Part shown: piece after piece, positions 988 through 14,541 of the stretch
Position numbering within the stretch: position 1 is the stretch's first letter
Layout of the letters: each line of letters begins with the position of its first letter
The notes under the pieces: model-generated
Seen by the model: the letters and a program-made list of their open reading frames with translations, nothing else
Told to the model about the DNA's origin: nothing
Database searches by the model: none
Source: an uncultured Pseudomonadota bacterium
GTDB lineage: Bacteria > Pseudomonadota > Alphaproteobacteria > Rs-D84
Direction: 5' to 3'
NCBI GenBank assembly: GCA_947303585.1
Contig: CAMYYT010000001.1
Location: forward strand, 18,008 to 82,007
DNA length: 64,000 nt
Made by a program: the position numbers and the translations under genes

Positions 988-3309
988 ATGAAATGGTCTT
1001 ATGAATGGTTAAAACAATATTTAAAAACAGATTTAACCCCAGAACAAATAGCAGATAAATTAACATCTATTGGTTTAGAAGTAGAAGGTCTGGAAAATCC
1101 GATTTTACCAATCGCTGCAAAAATTGTCGAATGTAAACCACATGAAAACAGTGACCATCTACATGTATTAAAGGTGGATGATGGAAGTGGGACTTTGCGT
1201 CAAGTGGTCTGTGGTGCGCCAAATGCCCGTGTTGGTTTAATTTCTGCGCTGGCAATACCGGGGTGTAAAATTGGTGATATGGTAATTCAAAGCGGAAAAT
1301 TACGCGGTGTATTATCAGACGGTATGATGTGCAGCGGTAAAGAATTAGGCATAAATGAAGACCACAGTGGTATCATCGAATTAGATGAAAAGAAAGAAAA
1401 AATAGGTGAACCAATATCTGCGTTGTCTGGAACTGGTTCTGCGGTTTTTGAAACTTCTATTACACCAAATCGCCCAGATTATTTATCTTTGCGTGGAATT
1501 GCGCTGGATTTATCTGCGGCTGGTGCGGGTGAATTTATCGATGAAAAAATCAACGAATTAAAAGAAGTTAAGGGAAACCGCAAAGTAAATTTATTGGCTG
1601 GGGACGCTTGTCCAACATATCGCTTCTGCGAAATTCATGGAATTAAAAATACGCCATCTAATAAAACAATTCAAAATCGTTTGTTGTCGGCTGGTATAAA
1701 TCCAAAGAACGCAGCAATTGATGCTACAAATTATATTTGTTATGATTTGGCACAACCTATGCATTGTTTTGATGCTGATGAAATTGTTGGTGATATAACA
1801 GTTCGTATGGCAAAGCAAGGTGAAAAATTCACAGACCTTTTTGACAATGAACACGAATTAAATGAAAAAGATTTGGTTATAACTGATGATGCTGGGATAC
1901 TTGCTTTGGCTGGTGTGGTTGGCGGAAAACGTGCATCTACAACAGATAAAACAACAAATATAATTCTGGAATCTGCGTATTTTAACCCAGTGTTTGTGCG
2001 TAAATCATCAAAGAAAATCGGTTTATCAACAGACTCTTCTTATCGATATGAACGCAATATAAATCCAAATGGAACTTTGCGTGCTTTGTCAAAGGCTGCA
2101 AAAATAATAATGGATACATGTGGTGGTAAAATAGTAAATGTATCAGTCGCAGGTCGTGCGTCCTATACGCCGGAATCTGTGGTATACAATCCATCATTAC
2201 TTAAACAAAAAACAGGTATTGAATTAGATAAAAAAACGCAAAAAGATATTTTGAAAAAATTGCATTTTGATGTCAAAGAAAACGCAAATGGCGATTTTGA
2301 AATTATACCAAACCCACAAAGAACAGATATTGTAATACCTGAAAATATCGTGTCTGAATTAGTTCGTATTTATGGTTATGATAAAATCGGTTTAAAAGAA
2401 ATGCCAGAAAACACGATGAAACCAGTTCACAAAGATATGGATGTTCCATTAAAACAAAAATTAGCAAATCGTGGTTTGAACGAAGCAGTCACTTTTGGAT
2501 TTGGTAATTCAAAAATTGAAAAAATCTTAACAGATAAACCAATTATCAAAGTTGCTAATCCTATTATTAATGATTTGGATACGGCAAGAAACAATTTGAT
2601 TGGTAATTTATTAATAGCGGTTGCGAATAATGAAAAACGCGGTTTCCCAGATATTAATATATTTGAATTAGGAACAGTGTTTGATGGTGATAAACCAGGT
2701 GAACAACATACATCAATTTGTATAATTCGCAGTGGCATTACATCACCAAAACATTGGCAAAAACGCAATCGTGCAATAGATGTTTTTGATGTCAAGGCTG
2801 ATTTAGTATCGCTTCTTGGCGCACAAAAATATACAATTGAAACAGATAACGCGCCACTTTGGGCGCATCCATACAGATATGGTCGCATAGTCCAAGGTAA
2901 AAAAGTTTTGGCAGAATTTGGACAATTACATCCATCCATAGCTAAACAAATGCATATTAAAACAAATGTATTTGTTGGTTTGGTTGATGATATTGAGAAT
3001 TTACCGGTATCACCAAAGCATAAAAAAATACCGATGACTGATTTTATGCCGATTACACGCGATTTTGCGTTTGTTGTGGATGCAAATTTTGCGGCTGAAA
3101 AAATAGTATCGGCTGCTTTATCAGCAGATTCAAAAATTGCAGATGCCATAGTATTTGATGCGTTTGATATGGGTGATGGTAAAAAATCGGTTGCTTTCAC
3201 AATAACCATTTACCCAGAACAAAATATGACAGATGTTGATTTATTAAAGATTCAAGATTCTGTTATAAAAAATGTAGAAAAAAAATGTAATGCAAAATTA
3301 CGCGCATAA
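988..3309 (+). CDS. pheT: Phenylalanyl-tRNA synthetase beta subunit
   Basis: 773-aa ORF 16 nt after pheS. It has an N-terminal OB/tRNA-binding domain (KIVECKPHENSDHLHVLKVDDG), B3/4 and B5 regions, and a C-terminal FDX-ACB-like end (KKSVAFTITIYPEQNMTD). Confidence 0.93.
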   Translation: MKWSYEWLKQYLKTDLTPEQIADKLTSIGLEVEGLENPILPIAAKIVECKPHENSDHLHVLKVDDGSGTLRQVVCGAPNARVGLISALAIPGCKIGDMVIQSGKLRGVLSDGMMCSGKELGINEDHSGIIELDEKKEKIGEPISALSGTGSAVFETSITPNRPDYLSLRGIALDLSAAGAGEFIDEKINELKEVKGNRKVNLLAGDACPTYRFCEIHGIKNTPSNKTIQNRLLSAGINPKNAAIDATNYICYDLAQPMHCFDADEIVGDITVRMAKQGEKFTDLFDNEHELNEKDLVITDDAGILALAGVVGGKRASTTDKTTNIILESAYFNPVFVRKSSKKIGLSTDSSYRYERNINPNGTLRALSKAAKIIMDTCGGKIVNVSVAGRASYTPESVVYNPSLLKQKTGIELDKKTQKDILKKLHFDVKENANGDFEIIPNPQRTDIVIPENIVSELVRIYGYDKIGLKEMPENTMKPVHKDMDVPLKQKLANRGLNEAVTFGFGNSKIEKILTDKPIIKVANPIINDLDTARNNLIGNLLIAVANNEKRGFPDINIFELGTVFDGDKPGEQHTSICIIRSGITSPKHWQKRNRAIDVFDVKADLVSLLGAQKYTIETDNAPLWAHPYRYGRIVQGKKVLAEFGQLHPSIAKQMHIKTNVFVGLVDDIENLPVSPKHKKIPMTDFMPITRDFAFVVDANFAAEKIVSAALSADSKIADAIVFDAFDMGDGKKSVAFTITIYPEQNMTDVDLLKIQDSVIKNVEKKCNAKLRA

Positions 3310-3313
3310 GAAA

Positions 3314-3338
3314 AACCGCCGTACAGGCGGTTTTTTGT
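3314..3338 (+). terminator. Rho-independent terminator after pheT
   Basis: Hairpin CCGCC-gtaca-GGCGG (3316-3330) followed by TTTTTTGTTTT, 5 nt after the pheT stop. Confidence 0.8.
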
Positions 3339-3347
3339 TTTATAATT

Positions 3348-3728
3348 TTATCTTATAATATGATTATTCGCCATAATAAGTGATTCTATATCGCGATTCA
3401 ATTCACATGCGTTAATTATTCTTTCTGCATCTTTGCCATAGAAAGTATAAGGCACAGATTTTTTTGAAATTACATTAACGCCGCTTCCTTTGACCAGTTT
3501 ATTATGGTGTTCTATGCCTGGTAAACCAAAGGCTTTGGCTTCATTAAAACATTCTACATACCATTTATCGTATGAAACTTCTATACCATTGATGTTGTAT
3601 TCGTATCGCATAACAAAACTTGCACCAATTGGCGCATAATTTCTATTTTTGAAAATAAGACATTGAGTATTTGGATTTTTTACAGAAAATTCTACAAATT
3701 CTTTAACTTTATCGCGTTGAGTGAACAT
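3348..3728 (-). CDS. Hypothetical protein (126 aa), no recognisable family
   Basis: Clean ORF filling the gap between pheT and ileS on the opposite strand. I recognise no motifs. Confidence 0.5.
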   Translation of the reverse strand: MFTQRDKVKEFVEFSVKNPNTQCLIFKNRNYAPIGASFVMRYEYNINGIEVSYDKWYVECFNEAKAFGLPGIEHHNKLVKGSGVNVISKKSVPYTFYGKDAERIINACELNRDIESLIMANNHIIR

Positions 3729-3808
3729 AATAAACCTTTTTGTTTTGTCCCATTCTCATCTGCGCAGAGCATATTGTATAAGAATATGATAAAAAATCAA
3801 CAGATTAC

Positions 3809-3837
3809 TTGATTTTCATTAAAAATAATTGTATAAA
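3809..3837 (+). promoter_or_regulatory. Sigma70-type promoter for the ileS leader
   Basis: TTGATT (3809-3814), 17-nt spacer, TATAAA (3832-3837). The predicted TSS at about 3844-3845 coincides with the ATG of the leader ORF. Confidence 0.5.
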
Positions 3838-3844
3838 TAGACAC

Positions 3845-3877
3845 ATGAACAAAAAAGCGATAATTATCATTAAATAA
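3845..3877 (+). CDS. Candidate ileS leader peptide MNKKAIIIIK
   Basis: ATG AAC AAA AAA GCG ATA ATT ATC ATT AAA TAA. Four consecutive Ile codons lie in a 10-codon ORF between the promoter and a terminator hairpin, just upstream of ileS. Confidence 0.55.
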   Translation: MNKKAIIIIK

Positions 3878-3902
3878 CTGGCACTGCGCTTTGGCGGTGG
3901 CT

Positions 3903-3926
3903 GGGGCGCATATGGCGCCTTTTTTT
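3903..3926 (+). terminator. Attenuator terminator in the ileS leader
   Basis: GGCGC (3905-3909) / GCGCC (3915-3919) stem, extendable by two G-U pairs, loop ATATG, then T7 (3920-3926). The left arm can alternatively pair with GCGCTTT (3886-3892). Confidence 0.6.
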
Positions 3927-3948
3927 AATGCAACCAAGGGTAAATACA

Positions 3949-6900
3949 ATGGCATACACAAAAACAGAACCAAAAGTGAATTTTGCTGAATTGGAACACA
4001 AAGTAATAGATTTTTGGCGTGAAAATGACACTTTTCATAAATCTTTGAATAAAACCAAAATGGGCGAAGAATTTAATTTCTATGATGGACCACCGTTTGC
4101 AAATGGTTTGCCACATTGGGGGCACTTGGGGGTAAGTGCGATTAAAGATATGGTATCACGTTATCAAACAATGCGCGGAAAACATGTTGTTCGTGAATTA
4201 GGTTGGGATTGCCATGGTCTGCCAGCAGAAAACAGCGTTGAAAAAAAGCAAGGACGCAGTGCAAAAAATATCGTTGAACAAGACGGCATAGCGGCTTTTT
4301 GTGATATGTGTAAAAAAGATGTTATGACATACACTAATGAATGGTTGCGTTTTATTGAACGTATTGGTCGTTGGGTTGATGGTGGTGATGAATTTGGTTA
4401 TCGCACTATGGATAAAAATTATATGGAATCAGTAATTTGGGCATTGAAAAAAATGCATGATATGGGATTGCTTTACAAAGATTTCAAGGTTAACCCTTTT
4501 GATTGGAAATTTGGTACAGTTTTATCCAACAGCGAAGCGTCCAGCGAATACCAAGATATCGTTGACGATACAGTGACAGTATGGTTTGAATTGGAAAATG
4601 GTGACAGGGCTATTGCATGGACAACAACGCCATGGACTTTGCCGGCTAATTCTGCGTTGGCGGTTAACCCAAATATGGAATATGTAAGATTGCGTCACGA
4701 AGATGGGTCTGTTTATGTTATGGCAAAATCACGTGTAAACGCATACGATAAAATCTTTGCCAGTTCAGAAAATCTTGGCACAGTAAAGGGTAAAGATTTG
4801 GTTGGATTGCATTATAAACCAATATTTAATTATTATAAAAATAGCGACCCATTGTTGTATCAAATCATATCTGCTGATTATGTTAGTGATGGGGACGGTA
4901 CAGGTATTGTTCATATTGCACCAGCGTATGGCGAAGACGATTATTTAGCAGCCAAAGCTTTAAATCCAAAATTCCCAGTAATTTTGAATGTTGATGATTA
5001 TGGTAATTTTGATAATACTGTGGTTGATTGGGCGGGTGAAAATATTTTTGAAGCTAATCCAAAAATCATAGATTGGCTGCGCCAAAACGGTATTTTGGTT
5101 AAAAAAGATCAACATAAACACAGTTATCCTTTTGGCCCGCGCAGTCATGAAAAACTGATTTATCGTGCAACGGACGCGTGGTATGTTGATGTTCCAAAAA
5201 TCCGTGAACGTTTGGTTGAAATAACTAAAAATGAAACGAATTGGACCAGTGCAGGTAATCGTTTTATGGCATGGATTGAAAATGCACGTCCATGGGGAAT
5301 TTCCAGAAATAGATTCTGGGGTGTTCCATTACCAATTTGGGAAAAAGATGGCGAATATAAAATCTTTGGTTCAATAAAAGAAATGGAAGATTTCTTTGGT
5401 GTAAAGATTGATGATTTACATCGTCCAACATTAGATAAATTAACAAAAGATGGTTGGCATCGTATAAGCGATGTGCTTGATTGTTGGTTTGAAAGTGGTT
5501 CTATGCCATTTGCTCAATTACACTACCCATTTGAAAATGCAGATAAGTTTGAAAAGGCTTTCCCGGCAGATTACATTATCGAAGGCCAGGATCAAACACG
5601 TGGATGGTTTTATCTGTTAATGGTTATGGCGGTTGCGTTGTTTGATAAACCCGCATTTAAAACAGTGTCAGTAAATGGTATGGTTTGTGATGAACAAAAA
5701 AGAAAGTTTTCTAAATCGTTACATAATTATGTTGATCCAACAGAGCAACTAGAAGCATACGGTGCAGATGCAATTCGTCTGTTTATCCAAGGCAGCAATT
5801 TTATGAAAGCTGAATCGGTCGGTGTTGACAAAGAAGGTTTGGTATTCAATGACACAATCAAGACTATTTTAACACCGCTTTGGAATGCATACCACTTCTT
5901 TACTTTGTATGCAAATGCCGGAAATATTACTGTTGAAAAAGAACCAGATTGTGAAAATTTATTGGATAAATATATCGTTGCAGAATTAAACGAACTTATC
6001 AAAACAACAACAGCATCTTTGAACGAATATAAACCAGATGTTGCAGTGAAAGAATTTGTTCGTTTCTTGGATATATTAAACAATTGGTATGTTCGTCGTA
6101 ATCGTGACAGATTCTGGGATGAAGACGAAAGCGCTTTTGAAACATTGCATTATGTGTTGGTAAAATTCTGTACAATATTGGCACCTTTTGCACCGTTCAT
6201 AAGTGAATATATCTTTAAGAATTTAACAGGCAAAGAATCTGTGCATTTACAAGATTGGCCAAAGGCGGGTGAAACAGATACTAAAATTTTACAAGATATG
6301 CGTCGTGTTCAAATGATAGTGTCCACAGGAAAACAATTGCGCGAACAATATAAATTGCGTAATCGTTTACCACTTCAAGATGTCACAATCGCTGGTGTTG
6401 ATATGACCGAATACGCGGATATCATCGCAGATGAATTAAATGTCAAAGAAGTTAAATTCCTGGACAATATTAAATCTGTGGCAGATTCTTTCGTGTATTT
6501 AATCACACCAAAAATCGGTGCGCGTCTTGGCAGTGCTCTGAAAGAAATAATCCCATCGGTTAAACGCGGTGATTATACTTTGGACGGTGATAAGTTAGTT
6601 GTTGGCGAATATACTTTGAACAATGACGAATTTGAAAACCGTTTAACTGTCAAACAAGGTGTCAGTGGTGCCGCGTTGCCAGATAATACAGCTGTGGTTG
6701 TTTTGAATACTGAAATCAATGGTGAATTAATCGCCGAAGGTTTGGTAAACGATGCATTGCGTTTTATTCAAGATTCACGCAAAGCCGCGGGATTAGATGT
6801 ATCAGACAGAATAAAAATGACCTATACAGCAGATTCTGGGCTTTATACAGCAATCGAGGCACACAAAAAACGTATTATGCATGACGCTTTGATTGTTGAA

Positions 6901-6978
6901 ATGAATATTGGTGTGGCTGAACAATTCACAAAACAAATCGAAGATTATAACTTTGTAATTGATATTGAAAAAGCATAA
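3949..6978 (+). CDS. ileS: Isoleucyl-tRNA synthetase, type 2 (eukaryote-like)
   Basis: ORF 3928..6978. AAGGG at 3936-3940 favours the ATG at 3949 (MAYTKTEPK). Motifs: FYDGPPFANGLPHWGHL (HxGH), KFSKS, and editing domain WTTTPWTLP. There is no C-terminal Zn-Cys cluster. Confidence 0.93.
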   Translation: MAYTKTEPKVNFAELEHKVIDFWRENDTFHKSLNKTKMGEEFNFYDGPPFANGLPHWGHLGVSAIKDMVSRYQTMRGKHVVRELGWDCHGLPAENSVEKKQGRSAKNIVEQDGIAAFCDMCKKDVMTYTNEWLRFIERIGRWVDGGDEFGYRTMDKNYMESVIWALKKMHDMGLLYKDFKVNPFDWKFGTVLSNSEASSEYQDIVDDTVTVWFELENGDRAIAWTTTPWTLPANSALAVNPNMEYVRLRHEDGSVYVMAKSRVNAYDKIFASSENLGTVKGKDLVGLHYKPIFNYYKNSDPLLYQIISADYVSDGDGTGIVHIAPAYGEDDYLAAKALNPKFPVILNVDDYGNFDNTVVDWAGENIFEANPKIIDWLRQNGILVKKDQHKHSYPFGPRSHEKLIYRATDAWYVDVPKIRERLVEITKNETNWTSAGNRFMAWIENARPWGISRNRFWGVPLPIWEKDGEYKIFGSIKEMEDFFGVKIDDLHRPTLDKLTKDGWHRISDVLDCWFESGSMPFAQLHYPFENADKFEKAFPADYIIEGQDQTRGWFYLLMVMAVALFDKPAFKTVSVNGMVCDEQKRKFSKSLHNYVDPTEQLEAYGADAIRLFIQGSNFMKAESVGVDKEGLVFNDTIKTILTPLWNAYHFFTLYANAGNITVEKEPDCENLLDKYIVAELNELIKTTTASLNEYKPDVAVKEFVRFLDILNNWYVRRNRDRFWDEDESAFETLHYVLVKFCTILAPFAPFISEYIFKNLTGKESVHLQDWPKAGETDTKILQDMRRVQMIVSTGKQLREQYKLRNRLPLQDVTIAGVDMTEYADIIADELNVKEVKFLDNIKSVADSFVYLITPKIGARLGSALKEIIPSVKRGDYTLDGDKLVVGEYTLNNDEFENRLTVKQGVSGAALPDNTAVVVLNTEINGELIAEGLVNDALRFIQDSRKAAGLDVSDRIKMTYTADSGLYTAIEAHKKRIMHDALIVEMNIGVAEQFTKQIEDYNFVIDIEKA

Positions 6979-7653
6979 ATGACAAAACAGAAAATAACTC
7001 TTACACCGGATATTTATTTTGAAAATGTATGTCCTACATTGAATATGAATATCCGGTCAGAGTTGTATTCTACAAATGAATTTACTTTCGCTGTGGCGGT
7101 GATTTTATCTGCCCAGGCAACCGACAAGAAAGTAAACGAAGTGACACCTGACCTTTTTAAAATTGCATACAGCCCAGACAAAATGTTGGACTTAGGTTTA
7201 GACGGTTTAAAAAAACACATCAAAGTAATTTCTTTTTTTAATAACAAAGCGAATAATATCATTAAATTATCACAGCAATTAAAAGATAAAAACAGCAATT
7301 GTTCAAACTATAAATTTCCGCAAAAATATCACAATCGCAGCGAATTAATGAAATTGGCTGGCGTTGGTCAAAAGACAGCAAATGTGATAATGAATGTTCT
7401 TTGGAACGCGCCAAATATTGGGGTTGATACGCATGTGTTTCGCCTGTCTCATCGATTTAATTGGTGTAGCGACAAAGAAAACACACCAGAAAAAGTCGAA
7501 GAAAAATTATTAAAAATAATCCCACAAAAATATCATGCATTGGTAAATCATACAATGGTATTACATGGAAGATATACCTGCAAAGCACTTCATCCAAAAT
7601 GTGAAAATTGCCCGGTAAATAAATGGTGTTGTGCAAGCGATAAAAAGATATAA
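6979..7653 (+). CDS. nth: Endonuclease III
   Basis: Helix-hairpin-helix LMKLAGVGQKTANVIMN and a C-terminal 4Fe-4S cluster CKALHPKCENCPVNKWC. The start abuts the ileS stop. Confidence 0.9.
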   Translation: MTKQKITLTPDIYFENVCPTLNMNIRSELYSTNEFTFAVAVILSAQATDKKVNEVTPDLFKIAYSPDKMLDLGLDGLKKHIKVISFFNNKANNIIKLSQQLKDKNSNCSNYKFPQKYHNRSELMKLAGVGQKTANVIMNVLWNAPNIGVDTHVFRLSHRFNWCSDKENTPEKVEEKLLKIIPQKYHALVNHTMVLHGRYTCKALHPKCENCPVNKWCCASDKKI

Positions 7654-7689: not shown

Positions 7690-7765
7690 TGGTGCCGGTT
7701 ATAGGACTTGAACCTACGACCCCCTCATTACGAATGAGATGCTCTACCAACTGAGCTAAACCGGC
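7690..7765 (-). tRNA. tRNA-Thr (anticodon CGU)
   Basis: The reverse complement GCCGGTTTAGCTCAGTTGGTAGAGCATCTCATTCGTAATGAGGGGGTCGTAGGTTCAAGTCCTATAACCGGCACCA folds as a cloverleaf. Anticodon loop is TTCGTAA and CCA is encoded. Confidence 0.93.
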
Positions 7766-12190: not shown

Positions 12191-12730
12191 CTATTTACGC
12201 ATAGAAAATTCGCAACCACAATAATTTTGGCGGTAAAATTCAGATTCACGGTTAATAGAAACGCGTAAATTTTCATCCCATTTAATTGGTAGATATTTTA
12301 TTTCACCACAAGATTCATTTGCCGCTGCATCAACTTGTGCCTGCGATTTGAAACGAGATACACCAAACACACTGGCTATCGCATTAAACCCGTGTTTTTT
12401 GGCATATTCACGTGCATAACAAAAACGAAAAGCAAAACATTTGCTGCATCGCGCCCCGCGTTCAGGTTCGTTTTCAAAACCGCTTACAGCGTTCTTCCAA
12501 TCGTCATGATTATAATCACCCACGACATATTTAACACCCAATTTTTCACAGTATTTTATTTGTTCATTTAATCTTTTTTGATATTCGTCCCATGGGTAAA
12601 TATTAGGATTAAAAAACATAACGATAAAATCTTCTATACCTGGGATTTCGCCGTCTGCAAGTTGTTTAATAGCGCCAGCCGAACATGGCGCACAACAAGA
12701 CATCAAAATCAATTTTATATTTTTATCCAT
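12191..12730 (-). CDS. queH: Epoxyqueuosine reductase QueH (DUF208)
   Basis: SCCAPCS near the N-terminus and C-terminal YRQNYCGCEFS, which are characteristic QueH Cys motifs. Confidence 0.8.
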   Translation of the reverse strand: MDKNIKLILMSCCAPCSAGAIKQLADGEIPGIEDFIVMFFNPNIYPWDEYQKRLNEQIKYCEKLGVKYVVGDYNHDDWKNAVSGFENEPERGARCSKCFAFRFCYAREYAKKHGFNAIASVFGVSRFKSQAQVDAAANESCGEIKYLPIKWDENLRVSINRESEFYRQNYCGCEFSMRK

Positions 12731-14351
12731 TTGTTTTTTCGGTTAATTCAATTCTGTTGAACAGATTTTCCGGCACAGTAAATTTTTCGCTGTTGCCAAG
12801 TCTGTGTTCGTATTTTGTTGGCCAAGATAAATCGTGTTTATTTTCAAAAATGTTTTGAATTTTTTCGGCGGCATCTGGTATAAAAGGTGCAGACACGCGC
12901 GCAAAGAAATCAATCATTTGAAAACATTCATTTAATGCCGCAGCTGCCCCAGCCATATCACCGTTTTTAACCAAAGCCCACGGTTCTTTGATAGTCATAT
13001 ATTCGTTAGCAATCGCCCACAAAGAACGCAAAGCAAACACAGCATCTCTGAATTCACATTTTTCCAAAGCATTTGTTAAATCGGATAATTTTTCATTTAT
13101 TTTTATTTCTAAATCTTTATCAATACCGTTTCCGTCTGGAACAGTATCGCCGAAATTCTTTGCTGATAATTTGCAAACGCGCGAAACAAAATTTCCCAAC
13201 ATACCATTTAAATCTTTGTTCACGATTTCAGCAAAACGCTCCATTGTAAAATCAGTATCATCAGTTTCAGGTGCAGATGCCATCAAAGCATATCTCCAAC
13301 AATCGCTTGGTGCGATATTTAATGCTTCATCAAGAAAAATGCCATTTCCCGTAGATTTTGAAATCTTCGCGCCATTAAAGTTCATAAAATTTTGTCCCTT
13401 TAACATATCGACAGTTTTCCAATTATCGTTCATTGCCAATTCTTGTGCTGGGAAGAACACAGAATGGAAAGACACATTATCTTTGGCCATAAATTGTGTA
13501 TAATAGCAATCTGGATTTTTCCACCAACTTGCCCAATCATCTGTCGCGGCTTGGGATATAGAAACATAACCCCATGGGGCATCAAACCAGACATAGAATA
13601 CTTTGTCTTCGAACCCGGGTTTATTAACAGGTATTCCCCACTTTAAATCGCGGGTTATAGGATTATCATGTAAACCTTCGTCCAGCCATTTATTAGCTAT
13701 GGTTATGGCTGTTTTTGGCCAATTTTGGCGAGAATCAATCCAAGCGCGTAATTTATCTTGGACAGCGCTTAATTTAAAATACAAATGTTTTGTTTCACGC
13801 ATTTCAACTGGGGAAGAAGGATCGATTGCGCTGTGTGGATTGATTAATTGATCAGGGTCAAGTGATGTGCCACATTTATCACATTCATTTCCATATGCGT
13901 GGTCATAGCCGCATTTTGGACAAGTCCCAATAACATATCTGTCTGCCAAGAATTTTTTTTCGTTTACAGAATAAGGCTGCATGGATGATTTTTCTTCTAT
14001 CATTCCCAAAGAATCAAGACGATTGAATAATTCATGAATCAATTTTTCATGTAATTTTGTATGTGTACGACCATATAAATCAAAGGACAATTTAAAATCA
14101 CGAACAGCGTCCAAATGTTTTGCGCGGTATTTATCAACATATTCTTCAACAGGGATGTTTTCTTTCAAAGCACCAACTTCGCTGGGAGTACCATGTTCAT
14201 CAGCGCCACCAATATAAAGAACATCACGTCCCTGTGCACGACAGAATCTGGCATATACATCACTTGGCAATAAACAACCAATTAAATGCCCAATATGTAA
14301 ATTGTTGTTAACATAAGGCAGCGCAGAAGTAATTAAATATTTTTGTCCCAT
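12723..14351 (-). CDS. metG: Methionyl-tRNA synthetase
   Basis: LHIGHL (HIGH), KISKS (KMSKS), and zinc knuckles CPKCG..CDKCG. It overlaps the queH start by 8 nt. Confidence 0.93.
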   Translation of the reverse strand: MGQKYLITSALPYVNNNLHIGHLIGCLLPSDVYARFCRAQGRDVLYIGGADEHGTPSEVGALKENIPVEEYVDKYRAKHLDAVRDFKLSFDLYGRTHTKLHEKLIHELFNRLDSLGMIEEKSSMQPYSVNEKKFLADRYVIGTCPKCGYDHAYGNECDKCGTSLDPDQLINPHSAIDPSSPVEMRETKHLYFKLSAVQDKLRAWIDSRQNWPKTAITIANKWLDEGLHDNPITRDLKWGIPVNKPGFEDKVFYVWFDAPWGYVSISQAATDDWASWWKNPDCYYTQFMAKDNVSFHSVFFPAQELAMNDNWKTVDMLKGQNFMNFNGAKISKSTGNGIFLDEALNIAPSDCWRYALMASAPETDDTDFTMERFAEIVNKDLNGMLGNFVSRVCKLSAKNFGDTVPDGNGIDKDLEIKINEKLSDLTNALEKCEFRDAVFALRSLWAIANEYMTIKEPWALVKNGDMAGAAAALNECFQMIDFFARVSAPFIPDAAEKIQNIFENKHDLSWPTKYEHRLGNSEKFTVPENLFNRIELTEKTNG

Positions 14352-14464: not shown

Positions 14465-14541
14465 TGGTGGGTGGTATTGGGCTCGAACCAACGACCTCCA
14501 CGATGTCAACGTGACGCTCTAGCCAACTGAGCTAACCACCC
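14465..14541 (-). tRNA. tRNA-Val (anticodon GAC)
   Basis: The reverse complement GGGTGGTTAGCTCAGTTGGCTAGAGCGTCACGTTGACATCGTGGAGGTCGTTGGTTCGAGCCCAATACCACCCACCA has anticodon loop TTGACAT. CCA is encoded. Confidence 0.93.

Follow-up and report, generated by a model that had tools for sequence, protein, structure and literature searches.

A putative isoleucine-sensing leader-peptide attenuator upstream of ileS in uncultured Alphaproteobacteria

In an uncultured rumen alphaproteobacterium (Rs-D84), ileS, the gene for isoleucyl-tRNA synthetase (IleRS), is preceded by a compact element that combines a 10-codon open reading frame (ORF) carrying four consecutive Ile codons with a set of competing hairpins, the last of which is an intrinsic terminator. 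We consider it likely that this element controls ileS by ribosome-mediated (leader-peptide) attenuation of transcription, after the manner of pheST and trp, sensing Ile and coupling ileS to the supply of charged tRNA-Ile. The element lies in a window of 64,000 nucleotides (nt), which is the whole stretch of DNA that was analyzed (contig CAMYYT010000001.1, positions 18,008 to 82,007 of the forward strand, assembly GCA_947303585.1), and for which an earlier note, hereafter the original prediction, had proposed attenuation through an Ile-codon leader peptide. On comparative sequence grounds the element is real, and the decisive evidence is its conservation in relatives: it is present in 124 of 143 ileS loci, as 110 distinct sequences, and extends down to about 61% IleRS identity. 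The loss of the short ORF or of its Ile run in related genomes, named at the outset as the result that would speak against an attenuator, is thus clearly not what the relatives show.

The leader element and its conservation

The intergenic region of 220 nt upstream of ileS contains the element, which measures about 80 nt from the predicted transcription start to the end of the T-run (all of its parts are on the plus strand). The promoter at 3809-3837 reads as originally described, with a -35 hexamer TTGATT (3809-3814), a 17-nt spacer, and a -10 hexamer TATAAA (3832-3837) separated by 7 nt from the leader ATG at 3845. The leader ORF itself (3845-3877; ATG AAC AAA AAA GCG ATA ATT ATC ATT AAA TAA) encodes MNKKAIIIIK followed by a TAA stop, and its regulatory Ile codons, ATA ATT ATC ATT, occupy 3860-3871; this part of the original prediction was confirmed letter by letter.

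Three hairpins follow, denoted by the segments that they pair. Hairpin 1:2 has a core at 3882-3887/3894-3899 (CACTGC/GCGGTG) that extends to 3878-3887/3894-3904, with segment 1 wholly downstream of the leader stop codon. The antiterminator, 2:3, pairs GCGCUUUGGC (3886-3895) with GCUGGGGCGC (3900-3909) around a GGUG loop; the original prediction had placed this helix correctly and given it 7 base pairs (bp), and it comprises 10 bp. The intrinsic terminator, 3:4, is formed by GGGGCGC-AUAUG-GCGCCUU (3903-3921) and a U7 tract (3920-3926), and the 3' strand of the antiterminator doubles as the 5' strand of the terminator. The positions of all three hairpins had been given accurately, but the claim that they are mutually exclusive holds for only two of the pairs (1:2 with 2:3, and 2:3 with 3:4), as hairpin 1:2 and the terminator can coexist. 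The calculated folding energies are -9.6 kcal/mol for the core of hairpin 1:2 and -13.3 kcal/mol for its extended form, -10.8 kcal/mol for the terminator, -15.8 kcal/mol for the antiterminator (-20.6 kcal/mol with its outer pairs), and -22.5 kcal/mol for the extended hairpin 1:2 together with the terminator.

As had been noted, the T-run ends 22 nt before the ileS ATG at 3949, a distance too short to hold a promoter. The gene upstream is divergent, so the terminator of the element ends no other gene, and, with no promoter between the terminator and ileS, all ileS transcription must pass through it. Within the window, both the complete ORF pattern and the antiterminator sequence occur once, and each is found in 0 of 100 shuffles; the uniqueness of the antiterminator sequence led us to reject a repeat element as its source. 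No Rfam family, the Phe, Trp, His, Leu, and Thr leader families included, matches 3809-3948 when 3300-4300 is scanned at E-values of up to 10, and the scan of the whole window at the gathering score returned nothing at the site of the element. T-boxes in particular were found neither in 3300-4300 (E-values of up to 10), nor in the whole window at the gathering score, nor, at the same score, in the scans of distant ileS loci.

Relatives were collected by a scan of species-representative genomes together with a metagenome scan, and the 143 ileS loci counted are those with 200 nt or more of surrounding sequence; a search for homologous proteins had returned only relatives with at least 78% identity, and the metagenome scan widened the taxonomic range. 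The alignment of ileS upstream regions that the original prediction had put forward as a check shows that the ORF is conserved in frame, length, and stop codon, and that the Ile run, the spacer, and all three helices are conserved with it, down to the same limit of about 61% IleRS identity. Loci without the element include L029, L058/L098, L084, L087, L089, L138, L158, and a group at 43 to 46% identity. A covariance model of the element gives exactly one match per locus over 100 loci (729 kb), always before ileS, and the spacer from the stop codon to the antiterminator arm measures 8 or 9 nt in 97 of the 110 distinct sequences.

The pairings are conserved along with the layout. Over 109 sequences, 96.1% of antiterminator cells are paired, compared with 34 to 65% when the partners are slid against each other, and double-sided changes occur at 4 pairs, which 0 of 500 shuffles reach. 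For hairpin 1:2, 85.7% of cells are paired over the same number of sequences (25 to 55% in slid controls), with double-sided changes in 26 cells, again a number that 0 of 500 shuffles reach. The terminator was assessed through the hairpins of individual sequences, the alignment columns fitted to the model being uninformative, and a GC-rich hairpin of 5 to 8 bp followed by a T-run is present in 63 of 63 leaders, which together contain 46 distinct hairpin sequences with variable loops. Two loci carry changes that run through all three strands. The shared strand of L057 has A in place of G, and both the 5' arm of the antiterminator and the 3' arm of the terminator have U in place of C to match; the shared strand of L105 has U in place of C, with A in place of G in both partner strands. 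Such three-way compensation supports both of the alternative pairings of the shared strand.

The leader ORF varies in the manner of a coding sequence. Peptides among relatives follow the pattern M-x4-I-I-I-I-(K/R/E...) and then stop; the length is 10 codons in 103 of the 110 distinct sequences (range, 9 to 11), and the reading frame is always kept. In the first 63 leaders, 251 of 252 codons of the run specify Ile, and variation within the run is confined to third positions, which are A, T, or C and never G. The stop codon is TAA in 98 of the distinct sequences, TGA in 8, and TAG in 4, a single codon separates the run from the stop in 105 of 110, and residues 2 to 5 of the peptide vary freely. 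Conservation within the run is highest at its last three codons, with A/M/V-I-I-I variants at the first position of the run, in agreement with the 3'-most Ile codons being the effective ones. Base changes of this kind are those expected of a translated ORF that is constrained solely in its Ile codons, its length, and its stop. Codon 6, the first Ile position, is ATA in 57 of 63 leaders, and ATT at codons 7 and 8 is equally frequent (57 of 63); ATA accounts for 28% of Ile codons across the genes of the window. Through the conserved AUA at its first position, the run may query the minor, lysidine-dependent tRNA-Ile in addition to the major tRNA-Ile.

In two loci (L082 and L142, both at 500-585), the codon following the Ile run is TAA, such that the stop comes 3 nt earlier and the peptide has 9 amino acids; there, the T-run of the terminator is degenerate (TTTATTATTA) and the hairpins are kept. 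Such loci may offer a natural test of the spacing rule, or their attenuators may be in decay.

The distance from the end of the -10 hexamer to the leader ATG is 7 or 8 nt in 46 of 62 relatives and 6 to 10 nt in 57 of 62, and those with a distance of 10 nt have an additional in-frame ATG at 7 nt. Promoters among the relatives are of two types, TTGATT-17-TATAAA and, in a second clade, (C)TGGAAA-17-TAnAnT. Only 1 of 62 relatives has a motif resembling a Shine-Dalgarno (SD) sequence ahead of the leader ATG; the ileS gene, by contrast, is preceded by an SD sequence. Since the -10 hexamer sits 7 to 8 nt from the ATG and an SD sequence is absent, the arrangement suggests that the transcript starts at or next to the AUG and that the leader peptide is leaderless. 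One locus (L119, 497-580) begins its leader ORF with GTG at an unchanged distance from the -10 hexamer, which is unusual for a leaderless start. Read at the level of sequence, then, the anatomy of the element is established, as are its conservation, the coding-type constraint on its ORF, and the covariation of hairpins 1:2 and 2:3.

Ribosome position and the direction of the response

From this anatomy we infer the transcription start, the translation of the leader, and the direction of the response. Transcription would begin at or next to the AUG of the 10-codon leader ORF, a position suggested by the promoter spacing. When Ile-tRNA is plentiful, the ribosome would pass the four Ile codons and arrive at the stop codon, where its front would cover the first G-C pairs of the antiterminator; alternatively, the ribosome would depart and hairpin 1:2 would re-form. 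By either route the terminator would form and the transcript would end about 80 nt from its start. When Ile-tRNA is scarce, the ribosome would lag on the Ile codons, and on the last of these its front would come up to the foot of hairpin 1:2 but not extend over segment 2, such that the antiterminator would form ahead of the 3' arm of the terminator and RNA polymerase would read into ileS.

The choice of method matters for evaluating this logic. Equilibrium folding of full-length leaders under a ribosome mask was dropped as a test, for it wrongly returns the terminator at every mask for the Escherichia coli trpL and pheM leaders. Its replacement, a snapshot method that folds the RNA present before the 3' arm of the terminator is made, reproduces both of these controls: without a ribosome, the antiterminator has a probability (P) of 0.12 to 0.15; with the mask placed as for stalling at the Phe or Trp codons, P rises to 0.9 to 1.0 for pheM and about 0.5 for trpL; and with a ribosome on the stop codon, the antiterminator is lost. 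In the snapshot of the ileS leader, the antiterminator holds the 5' arm of the terminator with P of about 1 in 94 to 97% of 63 leaders until the mask reaches stop+11/12, where the antiterminator arm begins. A mask beyond this point frees the 5' arm of the terminator base by base, beginning with the loop-proximal G-C pairs, at which the terminator would nucleate. In the equilibrium folding of full-length leaders, a mask of at least stop+12 yields the terminator in at least 94% of leaders. The snapshot result supports an arrangement in which a lagging ribosome leads to readthrough and a ribosome at the stop codon leads to termination, and, together with the pheM and trpL controls, it makes the pheST-type logic of the original prediction the most likely one.

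The accompanying claim that a ribosome stalled on the Ile codons leaves segment 2 free to form the antiterminator proved too simple, given that hairpin 1:2 forms first and is reached by the ribosome only from the last Ile codon onward. As the 3' end of the RNA grows, the best fold is hairpin 1:2 from 3899 to 3908, the antiterminator from 3909 to 3918, and hairpin 1:2 plus the terminator from 3919. Conserved, first to form, and with a high estimated barrier to refolding into the antiterminator, hairpin 1:2 is likely to play a kinetic part, whether by pausing RNA polymerase, as an anti-antiterminator, or both. If the front of the ribosome is taken as the first base of the A-site codon plus 12, Ile6 through Ile9 would place it at 3872, 3875, 3878, and 3881, Lys10 at 3884, and the stop codon at 3887. 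By such modeling, the ribosome position that flips the switch is fixable only to about 2 nt.

A number of results weigh against a classical Ile-sensing attenuator. Several concern the reach of the ribosome: classical logic needs an effective front that is 1 to 2 nt longer than the A-site + 12 rule provides, ribosomes on Ile6 through Ile8 do not reach hairpin 1:2, and a terminating ribosome covers 1 to 2 nt of the antiterminator arm compared with about 5 nt in pheM. Others are energetic. The barrier for refolding from hairpin 1:2 to the antiterminator is estimated at 15.4 kcal/mol (by the direct path), full-leader equilibrium with a ribosome mask favors the antiterminator only for fronts at 3882-3885, and about one-third of relatives have a terminator strong enough to keep the antiterminator from ever being favored at equilibrium. 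The fold energy of the single sequence is ordinary (z = -0.82), so that the case rests on comparison across genomes. Column-wise covariation of the terminator was not demonstrated (64.7% paired, compared with 54 to 73% in slid controls), the columns being uninformative because the register of the stem and the length of its loop shift between lineages. Finally, in 11 distinct relatives, a tRNA-Thr(CGU) gene ending 12 to 25 nt before the leader ATG takes the place of the promoter (carriers include L030, L059, L090, L095, L100, and L121); in these genomes the leader and ileS would be cotranscribed with tRNA-Thr(CGU), so a leaderless start is not universal.

The same elements could in principle work in the opposite direction, an arrangement that we regard as unlikely but as the best placed of the alternatives. 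In it, free RNA or RNA bearing an early-stalled ribosome would adopt hairpin 1:2 plus the terminator (off), and a ribosome at the end of the ORF, on its last sense codon or its stop, would melt hairpin 1:2 and leave segment 2 free to form the antiterminator (on). Hairpin 1:2 is indeed the first to form, is the minimum-energy fold until 3908, and is conserved with covariation; in about 67% of relatives, the full-length RNA without a mask folds preferentially into the terminator and hairpin 1:2; the 3882-3885 window that favors the antiterminator falls between the fronts predicted for the last Ile codon and for the stop codon, nearer to the front on Lys10 or the stop than to that on Ile6 through Ile8; and the spacing from the stop to the structure is the best-conserved distance, even in L101, in which the last Ile codon is replaced. 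If this logic were true, ileS would be switched on by successful Ile decoding, amounting to a translation-capacity gate on the synthetase. An essential synthetase would then drop when its product is scarce, an antihomeostatic positive feedback opposite to every characterized synthetase control, whether by attenuation, as in pheST, or by T-boxes (PMC1262725, PMC2965389). Inverse logic also leaves the conserved run of four Ile codons unexplained, and in the snapshot analysis hairpin 1:2 does not outcompete the antiterminator in the ileS leader.

Less probable still is some other postinitiation route, be it Rho-dependent polarity, an effect of translation of the short ORF on mRNA stability, or a constitutive partial terminator that keeps ileS expression low without sensing Ile. 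The terminator is present in all relatives and very strong in some clades, and L082 and L142, with their earlier stop, degenerate T-run, and otherwise intact elements, indicate that variants of the mechanism exist. A constitutive terminator, however, needs neither a conserved antiterminator with compensatory changes nor an Ile run at a fixed distance, and, downstream of the ORF, the leader has neither the length nor, being rich in G, the composition of a typical C-rich Rho loading site.

We assign a very low probability to an untranslated element in which the short ORF is incidental and the choice between terminator and antiterminator is set by a bound protein (e.g., IleRS), a tRNA in the manner of a T-box, or a small RNA. 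Binding by the synthetase has an analogy in ThrRS, which binds its own leader, and such an element would fit with the missing SD sequence before the leader ATG and with the strong conservation of nucleotides in the Ile run (ATA at codon 6 and ATT at codons 7 and 8, each in 57 of 63 leaders). What it does not fit is the coding type of the changes, which within the run are at third positions only and never create ATG, with three interchangeable stops and a preserved frame, nor the fixed distance of the start codon from the promoter. The 33 unstructured nt that precede the hairpins are, moreover, insufficient for a T-box Stem I, and the site has no match to the T-box or to any other Rfam model.

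Chance, i.e., a terminator-like hairpin beside an accidental short ORF in AT-rich intergenic DNA, could account for the frequency of Ile-codon runs in the window (4 found, compared with 3.9 expected) and for a single-sequence fold that is not unusually stable, but it is refuted by the comparative data, with the arrangement kept in 124 of 143 loci and 110 distinct sequences, one covariance-model match per locus that always lies before ileS, and the complete ORF pattern in 0 of 100 shuffles.

Surrounding genes and other synthetase leaders

The host is close to "Candidatus Enterousia" (its top relative has 97% IleRS identity), and the window has a G+C content of 38%. The window begins inside pheS (10-972), which is followed by pheT (988-3309) and by a two-way terminator (3310-3336) shared with a minus-strand ORF of 126 amino acids (3348-3728). 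This ORF, which is divergent from the leader promoter, has no Pfam or NCBIfam match, and a promoter-like site on the minus strand (TTGATT-16-TACAAT, 3800-3773) stands back to back with the leader promoter. Sub-threshold Rfam matches to several small-RNA and leader families fall at the two-way terminator (3305-3442), among them STnc420 at 36 bits (gathering score, 70) and weak matches to Phe_leader and Trp_leader at 3306-3382 on the opposite strand; we rejected membership in these families, as the matches look like generic terminator matches.

The regulated gene, ileS, has its coding sequence (CDS) at 3949-6978 on the plus strand, preceded by the SD sequence AAGGG at 3937-3941, and is directly followed by nth (6979-7653), beyond which a tRNA-Thr(CGT) gene lies on the opposite strand (7690-7765, minus). 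The encoded protein contains the Pfam domains tRNA-synt_1, Anticodon_1, and, at its C terminus, DUF5915, and in NCBIfam it scores 760 bits to the ileS equivalog TIGR00392 and resembles the MupA/MupB type over its full length. The presence of DUF5915 and the full-length MupA/MupB similarity are consistent with its original description as a type 2 IleRS. The start ATGGCATAY is kept among relatives, and 3949 is the only conserved start. An ORF caller places the start at the in-frame ATG at 3928, at the end of the terminator T-run, which adds 7 codons, and database entries of 1,027 to 1,030 amino acids for relatives may share this mis-set start.

Two other synthetase genes were inspected. In the window, metG (12723-14351, minus strand) is preceded on the same strand by tRNA-Val(GAC) at 14465-14541 and then by a 5-codon ORF (ATG CGA ATG TAC AAT TAA, encoding MRMYN, 14443-14426), a GCGGG stretch, and a terminator-like hairpin, GCGCC-CGTGAT-GGCGC plus a T-run, at 14394-14379. 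This terminator is situated about 27 nt before the metG ATG, such that metG must be read through it. Among relatives, L080 keeps MRMYK, the GCGGG stretch, and the terminator, and in L079 an ordinary tRNA terminator stands ahead of a promoter. The metG leader may be a second synthetase attenuator with a different geometry. The pheS gene follows rpmI-rplT in relatives, as it does in E. coli (L079, 15361-15473, minus strand; L080, 17028-17104, minus strand), and between rplT and pheS lies a conserved motif, TTGGCGG...GTTTTGT(T)TTGTAATAATAA(A/G)GCCGT, which ends in a terminator-like hairpin before pheS. A Phe-rich leader was looked for before pheS in these relatives, and none was clearly found (L079 offers MYIVL).

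Relation to known attenuators

Attenuation of a synthetase operon by a leader peptide is established for pheST in E. coli and other proteobacteria (PMC1262725) and has been predicted for hisS paralogs in bacilli (PMC2965389). The E. coli pheM/pheST system shares with the ileS leader a short cognate-codon ORF before the synthetase gene or operon, hairpins of the 1:2/2:3/3:4 kind, and an intrinsic terminator, and in the same folding analysis a ribosome on the pheM stop codon likewise frees the terminator arm. The geometries differ. The pheM ORF has 14 codons, of which 5 are dispersed Phe codons, and its regulatory codons lie on segment 1, while segment 1 of the ileS leader comes after the stop, an arrangement unlike those of both trpL and pheM. 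The antiterminator arm begins 5 nt after the stop in pheM and 8 to 9 nt after it in the ileS leader, and in untranslated RNA the antiterminator has a P of 0.12 in pheM, where hairpin 1:2 wins, compared with about 1 in the ileS leader. Furthermore, pheM has its own 5' untranslated region (UTR) and ribosome-binding site, unlike the predicted leaderless ileS leader. In sequence the two leaders show no resemblance, nor does the site of the ileS leader match the Phe_leader model of Rfam.

The closest precedents for a leaderless design come from Deinococcus deserti, in which de Groot et al. (2014) describe leaderless 10-amino-acid peptides before cysS, that one containing Cys, and before other synthetase genes, and propose attenuation (PMC4007540). 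There, as is predicted for the ileS leader, the transcript begins at the AUG of a cognate-enriched peptide of about 10 codons located upstream of a synthetase gene; Deinococcus belongs to another phylum, its starts were mapped experimentally, and the account of these leaders lists 14 cases without comparative or structural analysis (PMC4007540).

The original prediction knew of no Ile leader peptide for ileS, a statement that needs qualifying with respect to its existence and stands with respect to its mechanism. Ribosome profiling of Caulobacter crescentus by Schrader et al. (2014) includes an "ileS leader CDS" (CCNA_03934) and a trpS leader CDS (PMC4117421). CCNA_03934 is, like the ORF proposed here, a small ORF on the ileS mRNA leader of an alphaproteobacterium, and it is translated; in the part of that paper that concerns it, it is merely named and used as a negative control, and the likeness is one of description, with neither a sequence nor a mechanism given there (PMC4117421). 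A full-text literature search found no description of an Ile-codon ileS attenuator.

The sensing of Ile itself has ample precedent. Leaders with Ile-codon runs in ilv operons are described as sensing Ile-tRNA charging by ribosome stalling and a choice between terminator and antiterminator (PMC4117421). The ilvL/ivbL leaders of enterobacterial ilv operons and the ilvIH/ilvBN leaders of Alphaproteobacteria share with the ileS leader a peptide with runs of Ile codons (plus Val and Leu), but they serve biosynthetic operons, mix branched-chain codons, encode longer peptides, and have a conventional 5' UTR. The ileS genes of Actinobacteria and Firmicutes are reported to have T-boxes (PMC1262725, PMC7583486), which correspond to the proposed attenuator in the gene and in the charged/uncharged tRNA-Ile signal and, in Firmicutes, also in the terminator/antiterminator output; they differ in that a large structured RNA binds the tRNA directly, with no translation, and the T-box model has no match at the site.

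The proposed switch is thus of a known type, in a gene and a lineage for which its mechanism has no prior description, and it would not surprise a specialist. With it, type 2 ileS joins the few synthetase genes for which leader-peptide attenuation is well supported, and does so in a large, uncultured lineage of Alphaproteobacteria found in the gut, the rumen, termites, and the environment. For annotation, it accounts for a terminator placed right before an essential gene, and the 110 distinct natural variants of this unusually compact, probably leaderless element are good material for a new Rfam family. With its spacing held at 8 to 9 nt, the system is suited to testing how few nucleotides of ribosome position decide the outcome of an attenuator. 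The replacement of one sensor by another on a conserved target has been described for hisS by Naville and Gautheret (PMC2965389), and ileS would be a further case of such a sensor swap, being controlled by a T-box in Actinobacteria and Firmicutes and by a translated leader in this lineage.

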